The notes beneath the pieces are model-generated. The model saw nothing but the letters and a program-made list of their open reading frames with translations, ran no database searches and was not told where the DNA came from. A DNA stretch of 64,000 bases from an uncultured virus (IMG/VR IMGVR_UViG_3300035447_000008) (lineage: Duplodnaviria > Heunggongvirae > Uroviricota > Caudoviricetes), in IMG/VR virus record IMGVR_UViG_3300035447_000008; one strand, 5' to 3'. Of this stretch, positions 1,550 to 56,154 are shown in pieces. Each line of letters begins with the position of its first letter. The first letter of the stretch is position 1. A program made the position numbers and the translations under genes.

Positions 1550-2212
1550 TTAATTCTCCTTAATGTAACCTAAATATTTAAGCTCTAAAGCTTCCCTTGC
1601 AGCAACAGCACAATCAAAACTTGAGTGGTTCCCTCCACTATATTTAACTTTGTTCTGGTAAAGGTAAACTCTCCATTTACCGAGCTTGTTGTCAAAACTT
1701 ACGCCTGTTCTACCAGAGGTGTTGTTCTTAAATGTTGCCCTATTCTCAGACTGACGTTGCTCATCTGCCCATACACAATTCTTGGGAGAGTATCCTAGAG
1801 ATGAGTCAAGACGTTCAAGTTCATAGCCTTCAGGGCATTCTCCCATATCCTCTACAAACAATGCAACATCTGACCAACGATCACAAACAGTAATTCCTTT
1901 GTCATAGTAACATTGCTTATCTTTCGTAGAAGCTTTATCTGAGCAGCGGTTATGCATGTGCCAAAAGGCGTTATAAGCCCTCAACCCAGACAGCCCATGT
2001 GTAGAACTCTGTTCAACATTGTAGCAGCCACAGCTAATGCTTGTTCCATTTTTAAGGTGTGCTGCGTGAACCAATCCCTCGTTACCACAAACACAAAGAC
2101 AGTTCCACCTAGCAGCACTTTTACCTGTTGAGGGGTAAATGTAGTTCTCACCTCTGGAGACGATTGTCCACCTACCAAATACATTCCCAGTTAAATCATG
2201 CGTTCTTTGCAC
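1550..2212 (-). CDS. HNH homing endonuclease with AP2-like C-terminus
   Basis: DLTGNVFGRW..CLCVCG N-terminus; LERLDSSLGYSPKNCVWA HNH-like core; NTSGRTGV..W C-terminus. Confidence 0.85.
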   Translation of the reverse strand: MQRTHDLTGNVFGRWTIVSRGENYIYPSTGKSAARWNCLCVCGNEGLVHAAHLKNGTSISCGCYNVEQSSTHGLSGLRAYNAFWHMHNRCSDKASTKDKQCYYDKGITVCDRWSDVALFVEDMGECPEGYELERLDSSLGYSPKNCVWADEQRQSENRATFKNNTSGRTGVSFDNKLGKWRVYLYQNKVKYSGGNHSSFDCAVAAREALELKYLGYIKEN

Positions 2213-3104
2213 CTATCCACCTACCCTCTGAGTTCAAGATCATTGGCTCCAATATTGGTATAGAATCAATCACAACTCCAGTACCAATTATGGGGCGTTT
2301 AATATTCACATTGTTGTAATTGAATGCCAAGGCATCATCATCAATCAGACAACCACACTGCATAGCCCAGAACAAACCGTTTGGATTGCCCCAGTAGTCA
2401 ACCTTAAATGATTCATGGTAATGTCCTTGGATCGCACACATTCCCATCTGCTGGCTGAGTTTAATCACTTCACTCGACTTACCGTGGTGGATGTAACATT
2501 TCTGTCCGTTTGGGAGTGTAATAGTCAGATCAAAAGACCACTTCCAACCACCATCAACACCAAGTACATCGTTATAGCTTTTAATGTAATGCTTAGGGAT
2601 TCCAAAAGTCTTTGCCTTCCGCCACACCAAGCTTCCGTGGTTGGATTCAATAATGTCCATCGTCGGAAACATTTTAAACAGTTCTGCAATAACAGGCAGG
2701 CTTTTCCGCAATTCATCCCCAGCACTCGGCAAGTCAGGGTCACTGTCGTGATAGCTCAGTGCATGTTTATCTAGTTCGTCCCCCAAACAGATTATTCGTG
2801 TAGGGTTGTACTTAGCTTTCAGATGTTTAAGGAAAGCAATCAAATCTGGGTGGTGGTAAGGAATGTGCATATCACTAATAAACAGCACACGGCTGTTGTC
2901 CTCGCCCGCATCCTCCTTGCGGACAGAGAAGGTCTCAGAAGACTTCTTATTATCTACCAAACCCTGGGAGAAAATCTTTCGCAGATAATCACCTACTGTA
3001 CTACGGGGCTTACCTAAATGACGCGCGATCTGCCTCCATGAGATACCTTCCCGTGCAAGAGTCTCTGCCTGTTCCTGCCAACTACTCTCAATCTTCTTCT
3101 TCAA
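2196..3104 (-). CDS. Calcineurin-like metallophosphoesterase with N-terminal HTH
   Basis: SDMH, LGDELD, SNH, HHG, GHYH motifs; N-terminal SWRQIARHLGKPRSTV helix-turn-helix. Confidence 0.9.
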   Translation of the reverse strand: MKKKIESSWQEQAETLAREGISWRQIARHLGKPRSTVGDYLRKIFSQGLVDNKKSSETFSVRKEDAGEDNSRVLFISDMHIPYHHPDLIAFLKHLKAKYNPTRIICLGDELDKHALSYHDSDPDLPSAGDELRKSLPVIAELFKMFPTMDIIESNHGSLVWRKAKTFGIPKHYIKSYNDVLGVDGGWKWSFDLTITLPNGQKCYIHHGKSSEVIKLSQQMGMCAIQGHYHESFKVDYWGNPNGLFWAMQCGCLIDDDALAFNYNNVNIKRPIIGTGVVIDSIPILEPMILNSEGRWIGAKNA

Positions 3105-3551
3105 ACTACACCCCCTCTTTCAGCTTATCAAAATCCAAAAACCGACTAAAGTGCTCAGCTCCAACTTTCCTACTCCCTTCATAGCCAGCAGAACGAGAGA
3201 GAAGAATCTTTTCTTCAAGCTTCTCAAGCTTTAGCATTAGGTTTGTGTAATACGTATTCTGCGAATACCCGTCTTCTTTCATTCTTCATCCCCCATACTC
3301 TTAAGCTCATGTTTGAGCCAATCTCGAAGAGCTTTCAACCCTTGTTCTTCTCCAAGCTCATTGATTAGCTCTTTTGTGTTCACGAGGCACTGGATAAGAG
3401 CATCTTCATACCCAAGCTTATATTGGCATCCCATCACACCACACCAATCTGACTCATAAACACATTAGCAAACACACCAAACTGAACAATCTCTGCAAAG
3501 AACCAACAAGCAAAGAAATTCTCTTTGTCTAGCTCAAGCATCTCTTCATAT

Positions 3552-4103
3552 TTATTCATTTTCTTTCTCCTCCATTAATTTTTCCACAATCTGAACTCTT
3601 CGCTTAGCTGAGTTGCTGGCTGGAATTATGCCATTTTCTTTCAGCCATTGCACATCCTGTTTTTCCTTTTGCAACAATATCGCAGTCTTCTCAGCTCTTG
3701 CCTTTTCTAAAGAGATTCCTTGAGCGTCAGCATAGGATTTGCACTTGTGGCACGTCTTACACAGCAAAGCATAGTCATCAAGAGAGCACTCCCACAACAT
3801 AGCCTGAACAAACGCCCCAATTTCTTCTGAGCTTCGCATACTGTTATGCCCTGCTATGTGGTCACACTCTAAGTCTTTCTGACTAAACCACTCTTTACAT
3901 TCTTCACATTGTCCCATCTTTACTTTAGGGAATCTTTTCTTCGATTTAGGATTGGGATTATCTCTCAGTTCTAAACGAGATTTAAGAAACTCAAGCTTAG
4001 GTCCGTATCTGTTCCAAAGCCCCTTTCGTATTCCTCCACGAACGTAACTAAGCCAAGCAGATTCAGATTTCCATAACTGCGGCCACTGTTCCCAAGGAGT
4101 CAT
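3552..4103 (-). CDS. HNH-type endonuclease of the replication module
   Basis: CEEC..ECDHI..LLCKTCH. Confidence 0.8.
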   Translation of the reverse strand: MTPWEQWPQLWKSESAWLSYVRGGIRKGLWNRYGPKLEFLKSRLELRDNPNPKSKKRFPKVKMGQCEECKEWFSQKDLECDHIAGHNSMRSSEEIGAFVQAMLWECSLDDYALLCKTCHKCKSYADAQGISLEKARAEKTAILLQKEKQDVQWLKENGIIPASNSAKRRVQIVEKLMEEKENE

Positions 4104-16558: not shown

Positions 16559-17299
16559 GTGGATTATAGAAAGCACTATGCAAAGTTAATTTCTACAAGG
16601 ATTAACCTAAAAAGAGAAAAGTCAAAGGCAGATTATTACGAGTGTCACCACATAATTCCTAGGTGTCTTGGAGGGAGTGACGACAAAGATAACTTAATTC
16701 TCTTAACTGCAAGAGAACATTTTATTGCGCACCGACTTTTGAATAAGATGCACCCAAACGAGAAAGGGCTTTTGTGGGCTGTTTTGTTTTTGTGTGGTAA
16801 ATTCTCAAAATCTAATGACACCCGAATAACCAATAGGGTGTATGAAAAGTTGAGGCGCGAATCCTCCGAGCAGAGGATTAAACAAGCTGAACACGAAGAT
16901 TGTTTGCCGATTATGATGAATTTTAAGGTAAAGAGGGAAATTTGCAACACCCTCCGTCCCGTTCAGCGCATGGGAGAGAAAATAAGTAAGAGACAGCTTA
17001 CGTCCATAAACCTTTTATTGGGCAACCTGATAGGAGCAGCAATGTTAGATTGTAGCCTAACATACCCAAGGAGTAGAAGTCTCGTTTTTAGCAACAAAAA
17101 AGTCTCTGTTCACTCTATACTTCGCGCCGAGGAAATTTTGTTGCGTCTTGGGTATATAGAGTCCGTTCTAATAGACTCCACAAGCCCACTAGCTAAGAGG
17201 AAAAGGTGCAAGGTCACGCCATCGGGTAAGTTACTTCTCGATTTTGAAGCGTGTTCAGTGGCTTGTAAAGAGGAGATGGAAAGGTGCCTAGCTTCGTAG
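16559..17299 (+). CDS. HNH endonuclease (T4 Mob-like N-terminus) fused to a winged-helix-like domain
   Basis: YECHHIIPRCLGGSDDKDNLILLTAREHFIAH; C-terminal EILLRLGYIE..KVTPSGK. Confidence 0.9.
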   Translation: MDYRKHYAKLISTRINLKREKSKADYYECHHIIPRCLGGSDDKDNLILLTAREHFIAHRLLNKMHPNEKGLLWAVLFLCGKFSKSNDTRITNRVYEKLRRESSEQRIKQAEHEDCLPIMMNFKVKREICNTLRPVQRMGEKISKRQLTSINLLLGNLIGAAMLDCSLTYPRSRSLVFSNKKVSVHSILRAEEILLRLGYIESVLIDSTSPLAKRKRCKVTPSGKLLLDFEACSVACKEEMERCLAS

Positions 17300-18120: not shown

Positions 18121-18744
18121 GTGCGTAAGAAAAAGAAATTAGTGTGTGGTGTTGGTTGGAACGATGCTGACTACCAGATAACAGAACAACAGGTCACAAT
18201 TGATGAGTACGGTGGGAAGAAGAAGATTACGTGGATGTGCCCGTTCTACTGGAAATGGAAAAGCATGTTGCAACGGTGTTATTCCCCTAAACTACAAGAA
18301 AGAAGACCGACCTACGTTGGTTGTTGTGTTTGCGAAGAGTGGCTTACATTCTCTAATTTCAAAGCTTGGATGGAGGTACAAGATTGGGAGGGTAAGCAGC
18401 TTGATAAAGACTTGCTAACTCCGGGAAACAAAGTATATTCTCCAGAAACATGCGTATTTGTAGACAAACGGGTTAATCTATTTCTAATAGAGTGCTCCGC
18501 TACCCGAGGGGGGTGCATAATTGGTGTCTGCTGGCATAGAGGGGCTAATAAATTTCAGGCGCTGTGTGGCGATGGATCAGGAAAGCAGAAACATCTCGGT
18601 TGTTTTAACACAGAACTCGAAGCTCACAAAGCATGGCTTGCTTTTAAGCTTGAACAAGCTAAAATTCTTGCTGCCGAACAAACAGACACCAGAGTAGCAA
18701 AGGCTCTTGTTGATCGTTATGAGAACTACGATCTTCAAGAGTAA
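18121..18744 (+). CDS. HNH homing endonuclease (LDKD type, AP2-like C-terminus)
   Basis: WKSMLQRCY..VCEEWLTFSNFKAWM..LDKDLL..YSPETC; paralog of 52167-52754. Confidence 0.9.
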   Translation: MRKKKKLVCGVGWNDADYQITEQQVTIDEYGGKKKITWMCPFYWKWKSMLQRCYSPKLQERRPTYVGCCVCEEWLTFSNFKAWMEVQDWEGKQLDKDLLTPGNKVYSPETCVFVDKRVNLFLIECSATRGGCIIGVCWHRGANKFQALCGDGSGKQKHLGCFNTELEAHKAWLAFKLEQAKILAAEQTDTRVAKALVDRYENYDLQE

Positions 18745-18944
18745 AACTCCTCCTCGTCAGACAGCAATATTAGTGCTAGAATTGTTGAAGATTGTGAACA
18801 TGCTATTAAACTTGGGTATAGCGTTCTTGTGCAGCATTTGAAGCATTGGGAAAGCTATACAGCACAAGATGATGAGGATAAGGGGTATGTCCAAGCCCTT
18901 AAAGATTTTGAAGATAAATTGTTTACAATGGGGGGCGGATTGTT

Positions 18945-20552
18945 GTGAGTCGATTTGAGTGTGAAATTTTAGAAAGTGTTAGTGGTTCTCGAGCAGATAT
19001 TAGCCCGTTTTCGCGGGAAATCGTTGTTATTAGTTTATTTGATGGTATAAGTTGTGGTTTGCAAGCCCTTAAAAATCTAGGGTTTACTAATATAAAATAT
19101 TTTGCCTCGGAAATTGAACCAAACGCAATTAAAATCAGTGAGAAAAATCACCCCGAGATAATTAGACTTGGTGATGTGAGGACAGTTAAAATTAATGGTA
19201 ATTATATTGAGTCTGAAAATGGTAAATGGCGATTGGGGGACGAGAATTACTACCAGAAGGTTGACCTTATTTTGGCAGGTTCACCTTGCCAGGGCTTTAG
19301 CTTTGCTGGGAGTGAATTGAATTTCAATGACCCTCGATCTGCACTATTCTTTGAGTTCGTGAGGATTAAAAAAGAAATTGAGGATTACCAAGGAAGCGTT
19401 GATTTTCTACTCGAGAATGTAAAAATGCGTGCGGAATTTGAAGACGTAATAACACACCATCTTAAGACTTGGCCGGTAAAAATTAATTCAAGGGCTTTTA
19501 CGGCACAAAACCGAGAGCGATATTACTGGTCTTCCTTGCTACAAACAACAATTTATGGCGAAAAAGACATAAAAGATTTTGAACATTCGCCAAAGATTGT
19601 AGACATTTTGGAAGATAAAGATTATAAAGGGGTGTGGACTTGGCCGAGAGGTTATAACAAAGGCGGTACTCGATTAGTGGACAAAATGCCTTGTATTACT
19701 ACAAGCAGTTGGCAGCATAATTTCCTAGTGGAAAAGGAAAACGGAGAGCGCAGAAAGTTTACACCGATCGAGTGCGAAAGGGCACAGGGTTTTGGATTTA
19801 TTAAGAAAGAGGTAGAAATTTTTACATGTTTAGACCAAGCAAAGAACTTTGTAAGTGTGGTAAAGAAAAATCCCAAGTTGCTAAAACTTGTTTTGAATGT
19901 AGAAGAAACAGAACTACAAGAGTTTGTAAAGGCTGTGGGGTACAATACTCATCAAAAGTTTCTGCTAACAAAATATACTGCTCCAGAAAGTGTAGGTATG
20001 GGGATACCGCTACAAACAAAGCCTCGCAACCAACAAATAGAACAGTTTTTGAGTGCAGACAGTGCGGAACAGAAACAACCGTGCCTCTTTCAAAGAACAG
20101 GGGAGGTTTCTGTAGTTCAGGGTGTTTCTATTTGTATAATAGAGGGGAAAATAGCGCAAATTGGAAGGGGGGAGTTACCTCAGAAAGACAGTCTTTTTAC
20201 TCAACAGACACTTGGAAAGATGCAATTAAATTTGTTTGGAAACGAGACAATGCTACATGTCAACGATGCGGAATCCATTTTGAACATGATGATGGACAGC
20301 AGTTCCACATTCACCACATTGTCCCGTTTATCTATGAAGAGTACAGATCAGATTTTGAGAATTTGCTACTGGTTTGCAGAGAGTGTCATTACTGGATACA
20401 TTCCAATGCAAACGGGGAAAGCCTGTTTATCTCTGAGCCTGTATGATGGGTACACTGCGGGAATATCAGATAATCAGCGATATAAAGTATTGGGGAATGG
20501 TTGGACAGTTCCTGTCATTGAGAGAATCTTATCAGCTTTATGTGGCGATTAA
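18945..20552 (+). CDS. C5-cytosine DNA methyltransferase carrying a 217-codon in-frame insertion
   Basis: Motif I SLFDGISCG, IV GSPCQGFS, VI ENV, VIII QNRER, IX TPIECERAQGF, X LGNGW; insertion at 19794-20444. Confidence 0.9.
   Translation: MSRFECEILESVSGSRADISPFSREIVVISLFDGISCGLQALKNLGFTNIKYFASEIEPNAIKISEKNHPEIIRLGDVRTVKINGNYIESENGKWRLGDENYYQKVDLILAGSPCQGFSFAGSELNFNDPRSALFFEFVRIKKEIEDYQGSVDFLLENVKMRAEFEDVITHHLKTWPVKINSRAFTAQNRERYYWSSLLQTTIYGEKDIKDFEHSPKIVDILEDKDYKGVWTWPRGYNKGGTRLVDKMPCITTSSWQHNFLVEKENGERRKFTPIECERAQGFGFIKKEVEIFTCLDQAKNFVSVVKKNPKLLKLVLNVEETELQEFVKAVGYNTHQKFLLTKYTAPESVGMGIPLQTKPRNQQIEQFLSADSAEQKQPCLFQRTGEVSVVQGVSICIIEGKIAQIGRGELPQKDSLFTQQTLGKMQLNLFGNETMLHVNDAESILNMMMDSSSTFTTLSRLSMKSTDQILRICYWFAESVITGYIPMQTGKACLSLSLYDGYTAGISDNQRYKVLGNGWTVPVIERILSALCGD
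19826..20446 (+). CDS. HNH endonuclease with N-terminal Zn-ribbon repeats, nested out of frame in the methyltransferase
   Basis: Own RBS (AAAGAGGT); repeated CxxC..CSxxC; NWKGG; RDNATCQRC..HIHHIVP..NLLLVCRECH. Confidence 0.92.
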   Translation: MFRPSKELCKCGKEKSQVAKTCFECRRNRTTRVCKGCGVQYSSKVSANKIYCSRKCRYGDTATNKASQPTNRTVFECRQCGTETTVPLSKNRGGFCSSGCFYLYNRGENSANWKGGVTSERQSFYSTDTWKDAIKFVWKRDNATCQRCGIHFEHDDGQQFHIHHIVPFIYEEYRSDFENLLLVCRECHYWIHSNANGESLFISEPV

Positions 20553-20620
20553 AAATTCCAATTATACACGAGAAAATGTTAAGTCTATACTAATACCCAT
20601 AAACAGAGCGGAGTTGCGAA

Positions 20621-20878
20621 ATGAAAACCATGTCTCAGATTGAAAAAATTGACGCTGAGTGGCTGACCAACGAACAAAAGGGTATGTGCAATTACTGGCT
20701 AAAGAAGGGTGCGGGAGTTTATGTGGAAGGCCCGTATATGTGCAGTTTTCACAAGAAAGAATACGGCTACCTATGGGTAGATACAGGTAAAAAGTTGCTT
20801 AAACTTGATGGTCGTGGGTATGATGTTAAGATGCAGTGTGAGACACATCCCAAATTGTGTAATTTTTCAGGAGAATAG
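20621..20878 (+). CDS. Hypothetical protein
   Basis: ORF with upstream promoter and GGAG RBS. Confidence 0.7.
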   Translation: MKTMSQIEKIDAEWLTNEQKGMCNYWLKKGAGVYVEGPYMCSFHKKEYGYLWVDTGKKLLKLDGRGYDVKMQCETHPKLCNFSGE

Positions 20879-32810: not shown

Positions 32811-34235
32811 TCATTTGATTCTCTTTCCTCCGTGTTTCTCATAAATAGAGATGATTTTATCTAAATTATATACCCACGTACTTTCGGTGAAACCATCCGG
32901 CATCTCTTCTTTTGTCAGCACACCACACTCAAGAGTTTGTTTACATTCTCTTTCTGCTGCAAGACAAGATTTCTTTGTTTCAAACTCCCATACGCCGAAA
33001 TTTTCTACATCGTAGATACAGCGACTGTTTTGATTCCTAATACGAATTTCACTCTTGTTTGCAATACCAAACTTCACTGCAACAGGAGCATCACACTCCT
33101 TGACAAAATTGATATATGCTTCTTTTTGGCGAGCGGTTCCACAGGAACAAGGACGCTTACCTTGTTGGAGGTTGTCAAGTGTGCTGATACCGAAAGTTTC
33201 ACAAGCCGGACAAAATACTTCCCAAACAGCTTTTTTATTTCTAGAACCAACCTTTACAAATTTCGTCCCCTCTTCAAATTGTCCAGAAGCCATGAATTTC
33301 TGAATCATTACATCCTCTGGGATTGTTTTTCCTTTTGCTCTTTTTTCAACTCCACACTGAAAGCACCCATATCCATCACAAACACTTTTGAGAGGAACTT
33401 CGTAATCTCCATGGACAGAGCAGTTCATAACAACAAGATCAAACACGTCCTTGTATTCCCCCACCGTCTTTACGAACTTCAGAGTTGTGCCTTTGCAGAC
33501 ATCTTCTACAATTTTTAGTCTCTCTTCAAGAGGTGTTCGTCTTCCATCGGCAGATTTTAATTTACCACACTCAGGACAACCCCTTTCTCTGTGCATAAAG
33601 TTATTAACAGAGCAACCCGACCACTCTCCGTGGATTTTACAAGATAACCTAATCTTACTACGGTCGTTCTTATAACCTTCAACAAAACCTAAAAATTTGT
33701 AGCCAAGTTTTTCAGCTTTTCGTCTGCACCGAATTAGCTGCTCTTCTTCCGTCCACTTTTTAAGTTTAGAGCAACCACAAGGTCTGCGACCTTTGATCAG
33801 CTCGTGGTATGGTACAGAGAAAACCCCCTTTCCAAAAAGCTCTGGGTCGTCCCCACACTTTAGGCACCTAATTTCAACTTTGTGCCTGTGTTCGGCAGAT
33901 GTAATGCTGAGAAATATGTAACCCATTGCCTCAGATGCACGATTTCCCAATACCGCCCACTGATTTTCGGAGTATTTGGGAATCTTTGAGCACCCACAGG
34001 GCATGTTGCCAATTAGATACTTTGCTTTTATTCTTGAAAAGCATCCACCACCCCACATCTCTCGGTCCTTAGAACAGACAGCACATCGAGAAATATAGAG
34101 CTTAGCGCCGTCATATTTACCACTCCACCCAATCACCTCAAGCTGCCCTTCATCCCCAAAACGAGGACGTGTAAGGCTCCATTCATCTTGTTGTAATCCA
34201 TACTCAGGATCAATCAGGTCTTCAAGATTTGCCAC
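32811..34235 (-). CDS. Homing-endonuclease-like protein: tandem Zn-ribbon (DUF723-like) repeats plus C-terminal GIY-YIG-like domain
   Basis: Repeated C..HG...GC..C and PCGC modules; C-terminal AYI..VKFGIA..RIR..E..GFTE; GTG start after GGAGG. Confidence 0.8.
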   Translation of the reverse strand: MANLEDLIDPEYGLQQDEWSLTRPRFGDEGQLEVIGWSGKYDGAKLYISRCAVCSKDREMWGGGCFSRIKAKYLIGNMPCGCSKIPKYSENQWAVLGNRASEAMGYIFLSITSAEHRHKVEIRCLKCGDDPELFGKGVFSVPYHELIKGRRPCGCSKLKKWTEEEQLIRCRRKAEKLGYKFLGFVEGYKNDRSKIRLSCKIHGEWSGCSVNNFMHRERGCPECGKLKSADGRRTPLEERLKIVEDVCKGTTLKFVKTVGEYKDVFDLVVMNCSVHGDYEVPLKSVCDGYGCFQCGVEKRAKGKTIPEDVMIQKFMASGQFEEGTKFVKVGSRNKKAVWEVFCPACETFGISTLDNLQQGKRPCSCGTARQKEAYINFVKECDAPVAVKFGIANKSEIRIRNQNSRCIYDVENFGVWEFETKKSCLAAERECKQTLECGVLTKEEMPDGFTESTWVYNLDKIISIYEKHGGKRIK

Positions 34236-34293
34236 AGATTTCCTCCAGTAGAAACAAAAATAGCCCAACATCGTTAAATGTCAGGCCATCATA

Positions 34294-42456: not shown

Positions 42457-43584
42457 TCAGTCGGTAATTTCTACGGTGTAGTTCATAAGTGCAGCATAAG
42501 CTCTTTTGTCTATCTGATCTTTCCATTTTTCAGCCAATTTCTTTGCTTGACTTTCTTTATGCGCCTTGTAAGCCATAAAAGCGTCCTCTACATTATAAAA
42601 GCGCCCAAGACAGATATTCTTTCCGTCTTCCCTTGCTTGGCTACGGAAGTAAGGAGTCCCGTCATAATTGTAAGCTATGTCCACACCAAGAGGTAGATTA
42701 TTAAGACGTTTTCTTTTAATGAACGAATTGATTTCCCTTGGGAGATAGCTACATGCGTCGGGTCCGTACACCAGATTACCCTTAACTATTAGGTCCTTAT
42801 CTAATTGAAACCCCTTATTAAATCCAATCTGTTTTGTTGCCCACTCAGCAAAGTTTTGGAAATTATGCCACTCTTCACAAACACTCTTGTCGTGATAACT
42901 AACCATGTGTTTCGACGAAGAATAACACCGCTTCATCATGCTGTTCCAATTTTCATACTCCTCTGTATGCCTATCCCCTCCAGATTTAGCCACATAAGGC
43001 CCAACTCCATAATATCCAACACCAGCCACAGTTCTGTGGTATGGATATCTAAAATTTCCGCGTTTAAGAAATCCATATCCGACCTCAAAGACACGTCCTA
43101 GATCATCTTCCAATGTTGCTACACGACCATCTACTTTCAATAGGGTGAACTCATACCCCTCAAAATTACTAATCTTATCTCCCCAATAATAGCTCCCCAT
43201 CGGCGTACCGCATTCACCACAATTACGGATGCGATTATCCCTTAATCGACGACCATCCACAAAAATGATATTACCGCAATCACAAACACATTTCCATTCC
43301 GCACAATTGTAGCTTGTACGCCTAAACTCATTTGTCACGGTAAGTCTGTATACCTTCATACCAGAGATATCTTTAACTTTTAGCTCTTTCTTACATAGTC
43401 CGCAAGACTTCTGACCTCCGTGCCTAACATCTGACAGTGATTTGACAACAACTTCACCACAATCACACTCAACTTCAACCCATCTTTTCATTTTCCCATT
43501 GGGGTGGTATGTATGTTCAACCTCCTTAATAACGGTAAGCTTTCCAAATTTCTCCCCAATGGGAGCCGGTACTGAGACTCCCAT
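42457..43584 (-). CDS. HNH homing endonuclease (LDKD type)
   Basis: GEKFGKLTV..CDCG repeats; WNSMMKRCY, VCEEWHNFQNF, LDKDL..YGPDAC. Confidence 0.9.
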   Translation of the reverse strand: MGVSVPAPIGEKFGKLTVIKEVEHTYHPNGKMKRWVEVECDCGEVVVKSLSDVRHGGQKSCGLCKKELKVKDISGMKVYRLTVTNEFRRTSYNCAEWKCVCDCGNIIFVDGRRLRDNRIRNCGECGTPMGSYYWGDKISNFEGYEFTLLKVDGRVATLEDDLGRVFEVGYGFLKRGNFRYPYHRTVAGVGYYGVGPYVAKSGGDRHTEEYENWNSMMKRCYSSSKHMVSYHDKSVCEEWHNFQNFAEWATKQIGFNKGFQLDKDLIVKGNLVYGPDACSYLPREINSFIKRKRLNNLPLGVDIAYNYDGTPYFRSQAREDGKNICLGRFYNVEDAFMAYKAHKESQAKKLAEKWKDQIDKRAYAALMNYTVEITD

Positions 43585-45433: not shown

Positions 45434-46132
45434 TCAGTAACTTGTTGGTTTTCCTTGATTAATGTCTGATACTAGCTCGTTTCGTTTAATATGAAGTATT
45501 TCTATTAATTTTAAATGATCCTTAATTTTGCCCTTCTCCATAACATCCTCTATAGTCTTCAATCGGTAAATCTGCCAAGCCCTGTGGGCTTCTAATTCAG
45601 AGTCAAACATTCCTAGATGTACTTTCTTGTTATTACTTACCCCATATGCCTGAAATCTCCCGGAGGCTCTAAGTTTGTGGACACCTAAAAACTTTTCTCC
45701 GCCATTATTTGTCCTTTTAAATAGTAAGTTTACATACGCGGGGACGAAGATACAAGTCTCTTTACTATAAATCTTATCTTTTGATAAGATATCCTTGTCT
45801 ATACACCAAAATTTGCCGTTTTCCTCTGTCTCCATATACCCATACTCATTGTTGCACCACTCGGCAAATTCTTGGAAGCAGTCAAACTTGGACAAAGAGC
45901 CTTTATAACAAGGGCTTTTATCTTGCAACTTAGACCCGCAACTGGTCCTTGACTTTATATCGTGCCATAATGTGTATGCCCTCGTTTTATATTGAAAGTA
46001 CCCTTCCTCGCACTCCTCGGTCCAAGTTGATGCCCATGTATTGTCTGCCAATCTAATATCTTTTCTAAGATAAACGGATTGTTGTACTTTAGCTTTTCTG
46101 TTCACTCTTCTCATCCCCTCTCTTAATTTCAT
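45434..46132 (-). CDS. HNH homing endonuclease (IDKD type, AP2-like C-terminus)
   Basis: FQEFAEWC, IDKDIL..YSKETCIFVP..N, HLGMFDSELEAHRAW. Confidence 0.88.
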   Translation of the reverse strand: MKLREGMRRVNRKAKVQQSVYLRKDIRLADNTWASTWTEECEEGYFQYKTRAYTLWHDIKSRTSCGSKLQDKSPCYKGSLSKFDCFQEFAEWCNNEYGYMETEENGKFWCIDKDILSKDKIYSKETCIFVPAYVNLLFKRTNNGGEKFLGVHKLRASGRFQAYGVSNNKKVHLGMFDSELEAHRAWQIYRLKTIEDVMEKGKIKDHLKLIEILHIKRNELVSDINQGKPTSY

Positions 46133-52166: not shown

Positions 52167-52754
52167 ATGCAAAAAAGAAACAAACTATTTTGTGGTATTG
52201 GGTTAAACGATGCCGAGTATGTTGTTAGTAAAGTTGCACGAGATTTGCAAGGAAAGAGGCTCGTCCTTTGGACTTGTCCCTATTATATTAAATGGACAAG
52301 TATGATAAATAGGTGCTATTCCGAGTCAGAGTTAAAAAGAAGAACAAGCTATGTTGGGTGTTCAGTCTGTGAAGAGTGGTTAACCTTTAGTAATTTCAAA
52401 GCGTGGATGGAAAATCAGGATTGGGAGGGTAAAGAGTTAGATAAGGATTTGCTTGTTAAAGGAAATAAGATTTATTCTCCCGATACTTGCATATTTCTTT
52501 CTAAACGCCTAAATAGCTTTCTTACGGAAAGCACGAAAACAAGAGGCGACTTACCAATAGGTGTTCGAAAACACAGAGATAAATTTATTTCCAGTTGCAG
52601 AGCAGATGGAAAACTTGTTTATCTCGGTCTATTTGAAACTCCTGAAGAGGCGCATAAAGCTTGGCTTAAATTTAAAGCCAAGGAAGCAAAAAGGTTGTCA
52701 GAGCAAGAGACTGACGAGCGAGTTATAAATGCTCTAATTAGCCGGTACATTTAA
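52167..52754 (+). CDS. HNH homing endonuclease (LDKD type)
   Basis: WTSMINRCY, VCEEWLTFSNFKAWM, LDKDLL..YSPDTC. Confidence 0.9.
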   Translation: MQKRNKLFCGIGLNDAEYVVSKVARDLQGKRLVLWTCPYYIKWTSMINRCYSESELKRRTSYVGCSVCEEWLTFSNFKAWMENQDWEGKELDKDLLVKGNKIYSPDTCIFLSKRLNSFLTESTKTRGDLPIGVRKHRDKFISSCRADGKLVYLGLFETPEEAHKAWLKFKAKEAKRLSEQETDERVINALISRYI

Positions 52755-54975: not shown

Positions 54976-56154
54976 ATGGGACGTAAGAAAGGTTCCTCCA
55001 TTGGTCCTAAAGTTGATCTAACGGGCAATGTTTACGGAAAACTAACAGTCACTGCATTTGCGGGAAAACAATACTACCCCTCAGGTGAATCGAAATACAC
55101 TTGGAAATGTCAATGCGAGTGTGGTAATGAAATTGTAACCACAGGGAACGCTCTTAGAACTGGTAATACGTCCAGTTGTAGGCAGTGTATTTATATTGAT
55201 ATTACAAATCAAAGGTTCGGAAAACTTGTTGCACTTGAACGACAAACTTACCGAGATGAAGCCGGCAAGGCTAAAGCCAAGTGGAAGTGCATATGTGATT
55301 GTGGTAATACGCACTATGTTAGCTATGGTAATCTTTTTCACAAGAATGTAGTCTCTTGCGGTTGCAGATTCTTTGAGATTCAAGAGCAAGATTTTGAGAG
55401 AAGAAAATCAGAACTCCTTGGACGGATTAGGGAGGCTCATGGAGATAGGTACCAATACAACCTTGACTCCTTTGTGAATGTTAGTAGCAAAATAAAAATC
55501 TTCTGCGAAGAGCATGGAGAGTTTAGTCAAAGAGTCGCAGACCATGTGTTTGGTGGTACTGGTTGTAGGGAGTGCTTCTTCGATAGTCGCAGATTAGGTG
55601 TGGATGGCTTTAAAGAAGCCTCTACGAAAGTACACGGCACCAAGTATGATTACTCCCTAATTACCGAGTATCATAGAAATAGTGATATTGTTGAAATAGT
55701 CTGCCCAGAGCACGGAAAGTTTTCACAATCAGCTCATAGTCATTTAGCTGGTTCGGGTTGCCCTTCTTGTAGTTCTGATCTTCGTCGTTGGGGCTATCGA
55801 AACTATTGCCTTAGCAATGAAGAGTTTGGACAGGCGCCGGGTAGCGTATATCTATTAGAGTTGACAAATAAAGAAGGGGATAGATTTCTTAAAGTTGGCG
55901 TTTCAAGATCAATAGGTAATAGGTTATCTGTTTATCGTAGGGATGGTCTTGAGCCAAAACTTCTGACGCTGATAGGGTCAATAACAGCCCTCAAAAGCGC
56001 AGAAATTGAAATTAAAATTCTCCGAGACATTAAGAAAAAACAACTCCGTCATATCCCTCGGATTAAGTTTGCTGGCTGGACAGAATGTGCAAAGATAGAG
56101 GCTAAGGAATATCTTATCTCTGTTTTCGAGGAGGTGAGAAGAAGTGTCAGTTAA
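54976..56154 (+). CDS. Homing-endonuclease-like protein (Zn-ribbon/DUF723 repeats plus GIY-YIG-like C-terminus) directly upstream of terL
   Basis: DLTG..GKL..CECG repeats, C.EHG.F.Q repeats, VYLL..LKVGVS..NRL..GWTEC. Confidence 0.85.
   Translation: MGRKKGSSIGPKVDLTGNVYGKLTVTAFAGKQYYPSGESKYTWKCQCECGNEIVTTGNALRTGNTSSCRQCIYIDITNQRFGKLVALERQTYRDEAGKAKAKWKCICDCGNTHYVSYGNLFHKNVVSCGCRFFEIQEQDFERRKSELLGRIREAHGDRYQYNLDSFVNVSSKIKIFCEEHGEFSQRVADHVFGGTGCRECFFDSRRLGVDGFKEASTKVHGTKYDYSLITEYHRNSDIVEIVCPEHGKFSQSAHSHLAGSGCPSCSSDLRRWGYRNYCLSNEEFGQAPGSVYLLELTNKEGDRFLKVGVSRSIGNRLSVYRRDGLEPKLLTLIGSITALKSAEIEIKILRDIKKKQLRHIPRIKFAGWTECAKIEAKEYLISVFEEVRRSVS

Follow-up and report, generated by a model that had tools for sequence, protein, structure and literature searches.

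A mobile HNH endonuclease gene nested in the open frame of a phage C5 DNA methyltransferase, and probably translated through

The 64,000-nucleotide (nt) stretch of an uncultured Caudoviricetes virus analyzed here (IMG/VR record IMGVR_UViG_3300035447_000008; hereafter the window) contains a gene for a C5 DNA methyltransferase that is interrupted between motifs IX and X by an insert carrying a complete HNH endonuclease gene in another reading frame. The reading frame of the methyltransferase (the host frame) stays open across the entire insert. With a probability of roughly 0.7, we consider this to be a homing element that does without splicing: translation would run through it, giving a mostly disordered loop on a short β-stalk, and the HNH protein would be made from its own internal start. 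An earlier reading of the window from its letters and open reading frames (ORFs), the sequence-only reading, had implied that such a layout was new. This was overstated, as the layout has been in print since 2025 for an N6/N4 methylase (Arsenault, Gosselin and Gogarten 2025, PMC11855218); the window represents a C5-class lineage that is large and better supported.

The read-through methyltransferase ORF (18945..20552, + strand) encodes 535 amino acids (aa). It was identified by an ORF call, by a PF00145 match (7.7e-28, confined to residues 28-225 in Pfam), and by the presence of C5 motifs I (FxGxG), IV (PCQ), VI (ENV), VIII (QxRxR), IX, and X (GN); every invariant motif column of 81 homologs is carried by the window protein. 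The segment 5′ of the insert (18945..19792, +) comprises motifs I to IX and ends with residues TPIECERAQGF, and the segment 3′ of the insert (20451..20552, +, stop codon included) contains motif X (YTAGISDNQRYKVLGNGWTVPV). Between them lies the nested gene for a 206-aa Zn-ribbon HNH homing endonuclease (19826..20446, +), to which the host frame is at offset +1. The nested product is identified by a PF01844 match (3.7e-10 in Pfam, passing the 21.4-bit cut-off), by PDB profile matches to the HNH domains 6me0 (4.4e-11) and 5h0m (3.6e-6), and by its invariant residues. A Shine-Dalgarno-like GAGGT (19809..19813, +) is found 12 nt 5′ of the HNH ATG. The second C5 methyltransferase of the phage (39263..40171, - strand; 302 aa; phrog_116 DNA methyltransferase, 1.6e-48) is not invaded and reads LELAQTVQVGYTDCLSYNQACAVLGNGW uninterrupted at the insert site. 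The sequence-only reading had described the long ORF, the ORF nested in it, the ribosome-binding site of the latter, and the uninterrupted paralog, and all four are present.

The edges of the insert were defined by DNA alignment with an insert-free related viral contig (L008), in which the common sequence stops at 19792 and restarts at 20451; the L008 allele reads ECERAQGLPDNYTAGVSDNQRY across the site. By this alignment, that with L001, and comparison with the near relative L007, the mobile insert spans 19793..20450 (+), which refines the edges of the 19794-20444 span proposed earlier. Where the insert-free allele has 10 nt, the insert has 658 nt; the net increase is 648 nt, a multiple of three equal to 216 codons. 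The HNH ATG is preceded by 33 nt of insert and the HNH stop falls 4 nt short of the 3′ junction, and there is therefore no free room for an intron core.

Over 19794-20444, none of the 217 host-frame codons is a stop; there are 23 stops in the third frame, 1 in the HNH frame (its own), and 8-10 in each of the three minus-strand frames. When the HNH codons were shuffled, the mean number of host-frame stops was 4.9 and the probability of obtaining none was 0.0007 (20,000 shuffles) or 0.0004 (5,000 shuffles), in keeping with the earlier remark that several stops would be expected. Viral contigs and species-representative genomes were then searched with the HNH protein and next with an HNH alignment, which yielded 90 related loci. 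All 25 of these with a full-length HNH match have 0 stops at offset +1 and lie inside an open frame 344-892 aa long. With loose patterns for motifs IX and X, 24 of the 25 gave a match (both motifs in 19, one in 5), and the remaining locus, L016, on reading has IEWERLQGFPE (motif IX) and SDTQRYKMIGNAV (motif X). With the window added, the 25 loci provide 22 distinct HNH proteins that are intact; their identity to the window HNH is 39-60%. The insertion point is constant, after ECE(R/K)LQ(G/T)x(P) and before the (S/T)xxQRYxxxGN of motif X, though the methyltransferases of the members are just 25-40% identical to that of the window; the HNH stop lies 0 to ~20 codons ahead of the motif X pattern. 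One further member, L006 (= L028), shares this insertion site with all 22 intact members and has an HNH gene with one in-frame stop, and its host frame is still open for 854 aa. This 854-aa frame (L006 1700-4261) consists of a C-terminal C5 part (motif IX, insert, motif X) fused to the start of a second methyltransferase (motif I onward).

Across the 22 distinct intact members, 0 host-frame stops were found in 4481 codons. The controls came from 59 loci with a match to the HNH domain only, counted over the matched stretches and with duplicate rows dropped; these free-standing relatives contain 238 stops in 6790 codons (3.5 per 100). Six of the 59 controls have 0 stops too, yet across only 75-174 codons. 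Shuffling the codons of each family locus gave 2.2-7.7 expected stops, with probabilities of obtaining none from 0 to 0.043. The codon junctions that would generate host-frame stops are completely absent: NTA codons followed by a purine account for 0/96 in the nested members vs 181/326 in the controls, and NTG codons followed by A for 0/92 vs 57/269. Depletion of these junctions had been proposed as a check in the sequence-only reading, which had also named stops in homologous insertions as the observation that would count against it; such stops occur in 0 of the 22 distinct insertions and not in the single broken-HNH member. The NTA and NTG codons themselves are about half as frequent in nested members as in controls. 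At this divergence host-frame stops would otherwise have built up, and we infer that selection keeps the methyltransferase frame stop-free across the insert.

The constraint on the amino acid sequence is found in the HNH frame. Mean pairwise nucleotide differences at HNH codon positions 1, 2, and 3 are 0.37, 0.32, and 0.49, respectively. Amino acid identity, taken over 160 gapless columns in 231 pairs, drops from 0.52 for the HNH frame to 0.35 for the host frame and 0.33 for the closed third frame. The CxxC pairs and HNH residues H163, H164, N179, H188, and H192 are shared by all 22 members without exception. The ratio of nonsynonymous to synonymous divergence (dN/dS) is 0.11-0.26 for HNH in the 16 closest pairs, and 0.16-0.34 for the host exons where dS was estimable. 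Because the HNH frame holds the sequence constraint, these comparisons indicate that the host-frame peptide is, overall, a by-product kept free of stops.

Several comparisons indicate that the insert is mobile and spreads independently of the host gene. The protein database contains intact orthologs without the insert (318-320 aa, 84-94% identity), among them P0006, which reads ECERAQGLPDNYTAGISDNQRY, and the empty site in L008 provides a further insert-free allele. Relative to L007, the insert is identical at 658/658 positions, its adjacent flanks are 96-97% identical, and the farther flanks are 85-88% identical, a gradient as expected from co-conversion. HNH is less diverged than the host exons in all 16 pairs with the most similar HNHs; for L015/L091, the HNH identity is 0.86 with a dS of 0.38 vs an exon identity of 0.61 with a dS of 1.38. 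Over all 231 pairs, HNH and exon identity are correlated with r = 0.59. Among contigs from read runs, one from sample X19 joins 19792 to 20466 with 25 other letters between and represents an insert-free relative, not a spliced form. The same sample contains a 203-nt contig identical to insert positions 20214-20414, and one community may therefore contain both the occupied and the empty allele.

The structure of the 535-aa protein was predicted by AlphaFold2 (AF2) on an 81-sequence alignment, and secondary structure was assigned by DSSP. The predicted local distance difference test (pLDDT) score is ~87-96 in the methyltransferase core, for which Foldseek identified DNMT3A/B catalytic domains as the top matches (E 1e-17), and 83-96 in the motif X region. 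At either end of the insert, a 9-residue β-strand is predicted with a pLDDT of ~60-78, consisting of host-frame residues 286-294 (IKKEVEIFT; 19800..19826, +) and 493-501 (ACLSLSLYD; 20421..20447, +). The block that holds the 5′ strand has a pLDDT of 70-78. The AF2 model of L004, whose methyltransferase is 31% identical, has strands at 345-353 and 556-564 and a low-confidence interior, as in the window protein. The last 17 codons of the host frame show a hydrophobic-x-hydrophobic-x-hydrophobic pattern in 21/22 members, compared with 3/22 in the HNH frame and 9/57 in the corresponding frame of free-standing controls, and it recurs in the host-frame 5′ segment of 15/22 relatives. These patterns at the insert ends argue that the host frame is translated. 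The resemblance of the ends to β-strands had been noted from the letters and is strengthened by the models of two divergent members and by the residue pattern. Three fates had been offered for the insert, namely that it is looped out, removed after translation, or bypassed by the ribosome; the AF2 models and strand patterns favor the first, and bypass has no support.

A zinc clasp and Cys-Leu ends, considered as a separate lead, were rejected for this family. The in-frame TGT TTA pair (19827 and 20424) to which the sequence-only reading had drawn attention is present, as a by-product or by chance: the 5′ Cys is uninformative because an ATG followed by a pyrimidine forces it, and a Cys occurs in the last 17 host-frame residues of 2/22 members.

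The HNH gene has its own ATG in every member. A promoter scan of 18700-20800 returned 5 sites vs 4.8 expected, with no sigma-70-like promoter just upstream of the HNH start, and an internal promoter is therefore unsupported in the window itself. Across the family, a hexamer matching TATAAT at five or more of six positions is located exactly 6 nt ahead of the ATG in 11/22 members, of which 8 are exact and several have a TGn; at any spacing of 4-9 nt such a hexamer is found in 14/22, vs a mean of 3.8 (maximum 10) for shuffled upstream sequences. With this geometry a transcript would start at the A of the ATG, which suggests a leaderless internal HNH transcript in the TATAAT members. In L015, L017-L022, L029, and L091, the TATAAT 6 nt ahead of the ATG (often preceded by TGn) is read in the host frame as Ile-Ile through ATA ATA codons; L022, a contig of 54% G+C, still has these codons at the TATAAT. 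A frameshift fusion of methyltransferase and HNH was also considered and rejected, as each member has its own ATG and the HNH frame is mostly closed a few codons upstream.

The reading that we prefer may be summarized as follows. A phage C5 methyltransferase gene would have been invaded, at its IX-X hinge, by a mobile HNH homing endonuclease gene that neither RNA nor protein splicing would remove. The net length is a multiple of three and selection would purge the codon junctions that make host-frame stops, with the result that ribosomes would read the methyltransferase straight through. The ~216 extra residues would be a by-product peptide, mostly disordered and with no sequence conservation of its own, and two short β-strands would join the insert ends so that motif X could pack onto the catalytic domain. 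The HNH protein would be a separate product of its own ATG, in a frame shifted by one base: in the window probably by way of GAGGT on the methyltransferase mRNA, and in about half of the relatives more probably by way of a -10 box set for a leaderless transcript. The nuclease would presumably cut alleles without the insert at the conserved DNA of motifs IX-X, and repair would then copy the element in (homing). The proposal of the sequence-only reading, a homing endonuclease that spares its host gene through an open frame and uses neither intron nor intein, fits the family well, with 0/22 homologous insertions carrying a stop.

We consider it unlikely that the long polypeptide is made and the loop is then removed or clipped, by non-canonical protein splicing or proteolysis, to leave a spliced or two-chain enzyme on the β-stalk. 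Such removal would need an open host frame too, and the interior of the insert is predicted to be disordered, hence protease-accessible, between two strands. However, in the host frame the insert matched no Pfam family and no Hint/intein domain (E up to 1), and the junction residues (F/GFIKK ... SLSLY/DGY, junctions marked by slashes) provide neither an intein Cys/Ser start nor His-Asn followed by Cys/Ser/Thr: the ends are G-F-I ... L-Y and then D. Further, the conservation of the host-frame peptide does not exceed that of a non-coding frame, and no catalytic splicing domain could therefore be encoded in it.

An unrecognized self- or host-spliced RNA element, with a core overlapping the HNH ORF and a frame left open for some other reason, such as avoidance of premature termination or polarity, appears to us to be similarly improbable. 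HNH genes inside phage genes are classically intron-borne, and Rfam knows only described families; splicing was also left formally open by the authors of PMC11855218. Against this, an Rfam scan of 19400-20800 with E up to 10 returned six weak, unrelated matches and no intron family, 20 related loci, scanned with the gathering threshold as cut-off, returned tRNAs only, and the insert leaves a core no space of its own. Host-frame stops are a feature of known phage introns, whereas the 4481 codons here contain none, and the β-strand patterns of the host frame argue for translation. A contig from a read run (X2), of uncertain RNA or DNA origin, covers 19628-20530 unbroken at ~91% identity. The Rfam and Pfam results and the junction residues agree with the earlier observations that there is no space for an intron core and that intein ends and Hint blocks are missing.

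It is very improbable that the invaded methyltransferase is dead or dispensable and that its frame is open by chance or through recency. The phage does have a second C5 methyltransferase, and one sequence taken singly could, at a low probability (P about 0.0005), be free of stops by chance. Yet the frame is open in every member, at HNH identities of 39-60% to the window, all catalytic motifs are kept, including motif X 3′ of the insert, and the host exons have the dN/dS of 0.16-0.34 given above. Translational bypass, with ribosomes hopping over the insert as in T4 gene 60, is the least probable of the four, for although T4 has a homing-endonuclease-linked bypass element, gene 60 has a stop codon after its take-off codon and a gap of ~50 nt, whereas the host frame here has no stop at all over a distance of 651-658 nt, and bypass would not select for a frame that is open through the whole insert.

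Several points weigh against translation through the insert by a mobile, splicing-free element, or limit how far it can be taken. The case for read-through is built on sequence comparison and structure prediction. The 22 members share ancestry and are not independent trials of the open frame. The identity of the host-frame peptide does not exceed that of the closed third frame, which fits a spacer and gives no positive sign of translation beyond the insert ends. In the AF2 model, the pLDDT of interior residues 319-460 falls under 50 (block means 21-44), the equal length and DSSP assignment of the two terminal strands suggest that they pair, and activity of the long enzyme stays a prediction. 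A novel ribozyme overlapping the ORF would escape the Rfam scans, and the four read runs compared with the window, none of which contained half of the sampled words, consist of contigs of uncertain RNA or DNA origin and cannot show splicing. As to mobility, the dS of HNH may be lowered somewhat by the overlap constraint, and the empty allele of L008 is without methyltransferase residues 1-108 and may belong to a decaying gene. An unrelated ORF (phrog_28887, function unknown) lies directly upstream of this allele (region L008 2184-3633), and the L008 copy may therefore be truncated or differently interrupted.

Among the best 120 database homologs of the window methyltransferase, 30 are long forms of this kind. 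Searched at the DNA level against 50,697 phage records, the gene gave nothing beyond short methyltransferase matches at 75% identity. One 657-aa relative, P0050, carries Hint_2 (PF13403), which suggests that this methyltransferase family has been invaded by inteins as well; several other relatives carry PF23571.

In mycobacteriophage ShiLan, the methylase gp65 contains a 202-aa insert without host-frame stops, named the ShiLan domain, which hides a 195-aa HNH in another frame, has no detectable intron or intein, and shows a disjunct distribution (Arsenault, Gosselin and Gogarten 2025, PMC11855218). That study, which was computational throughout and cites PDB 1U3E, presents an AlphaFold loop-out model for the insert; Gosselin et al. 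2023 (PMC9957025) is its precursor. When we checked the ShiLan genome (JN020143, the accession given in PMC3698066 and PMC10453261), the host frame was at offset +1 to HNH and contained 0 stops. ShiLan and the window are alike in having an insert of ~200 codons at a conserved phage methylase site, with the HNH start a few tens of nt into it and the HNH stop in its last bases. They differ in the host, which is an N6/N4 methylase (PF01555) in ShiLan and a C5 enzyme (PF00145) in the window; in the nuclease, which is HNH_3 (PF13392) in ShiLan and PF01844 in the window; and in the HNH start, which is GTG without a ribosome-binding site in ShiLan and ATG with GAGGT in the window. By BLASTP, similarity between the two HNH proteins is limited to the Zn-ribbon/NWxGG part (E 5e-5, 69 aa). 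Mycobacterium is absent from the ten organism groups listed for the window HNH (31 records or fewer each, with seven single-record names not shown). The words 'cytosine' and 'C-5' are absent from the text of PMC11855218, and a topical literature search found no publication on the C5 lineage, although one may still exist. The same study describes, in Pacc40 gp60, a second out-of-frame endonuclease-like ORF within an open phage methylase frame, the nuclease annotation of which its authors regard as less certain; unlike in the window, the site is different and the host protein is a helicase plus methylase.

A further nested case was identified in Escherichia phage BUCT618 (OM735461.1, L099), where a 201-aa HNH (PF01844/PF13391; 2252-2857) is nested at offset +1 in an N6/N4 methyltransferase (1839-3701). 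The annotated host coding sequence is 620 aa (633 aa from an upstream TTG) and has 0 host-frame stops vs 3.0 expected. This HNH is 33.8% identical to residues 77-202 of the window HNH. The two loci share a nested HNH at offset +1 and an open host frame, but BUCT618 has a PF01555 host and a different insertion site. In the record of this cultured E. coli phage, the methyltransferase is annotated and the nested HNH is not; no paper on the nested gene came up, although no dedicated search was made, and a tblastn search of phage records with the BUCT618 HNH as query returned no other nested gene.

The layout may also be compared with better known elements. Like phage HNH endonucleases of group I introns, such as I-HmuI, the window has a site-specific HNH gene in a conserved motif of a phage gene, presence/absence polymorphism, and co-conversion of the flanks; unlike them, it has an open host frame and no detected core, whereas introns carry host-frame stops. 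Inteins are likewise inserted in frame at conserved sites and translated with the host protein, but the host frame of the window has no Hint domain or splice-junction residues, and the nuclease is in another frame. In the lambda Rz/Rz1 pair of overprinted phage genes, two proteins are made from one stretch in different frames; in the window, by comparison, one reading would be a by-product spacer and the nested gene a mobile invader.

The window is heavily colonized by similar genes. Nine more ORFs have PHROG matches to HNH, homing endonuclease, or endonuclease families: 1553-2212(-), 3555-4103(-), 16559-17296(+), 18121-18741(+), 32814-34271(-), 42460-43584(-), 45437-46132(-), 52167-52751(+), and 54976-56151(+). 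The AP2-like ORF at 18121-18741 adjoins the invaded methyltransferase upstream, and its stretch is just 65% identical to the near relative L007. Elsewhere, a single place in Bacillus phage vB_BanS_Sophrita (162693-163160) is annotated as 'histone-lysine n-methyltransferase' in GenBank and as 'HNH endonuclease' in RefSeq.

Homing endonucleases have been thought to persist in useful or essential genes only by means of self-splicing introns or inteins. A third route, in which the invader keeps the host frame open and is translated through, was proposed in 2025 from a handful of mycobacteriophage genes (PMC11855218), and the C5 lineage provides much stronger comparative support for it, as the forbidden junctions are absent from its members and free-standing relatives are normal in this respect. 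For annotation, gene callers report one long methyltransferase at such loci and miss the nested nuclease. If translated as proposed, the invaded genes would also show, from nature, that C5 methyltransferases can tolerate large insertions in the IX-X hinge. More tentatively, at a little short of even odds, the element may be a dual-frame module that combines a conserved β-stalk with, in about half of the members, a -10 box or extended -10 box written as Ile-Ile (TATAAT, 6 nt, ATG) and giving a leaderless, host-independent nuclease, with similar designs in ShiLan and BUCT618. Should this be true, frame-preserving overprinting would be a general and widespread fourth lifestyle of homing endonucleases, beside introns, inteins, and intergenic sites.

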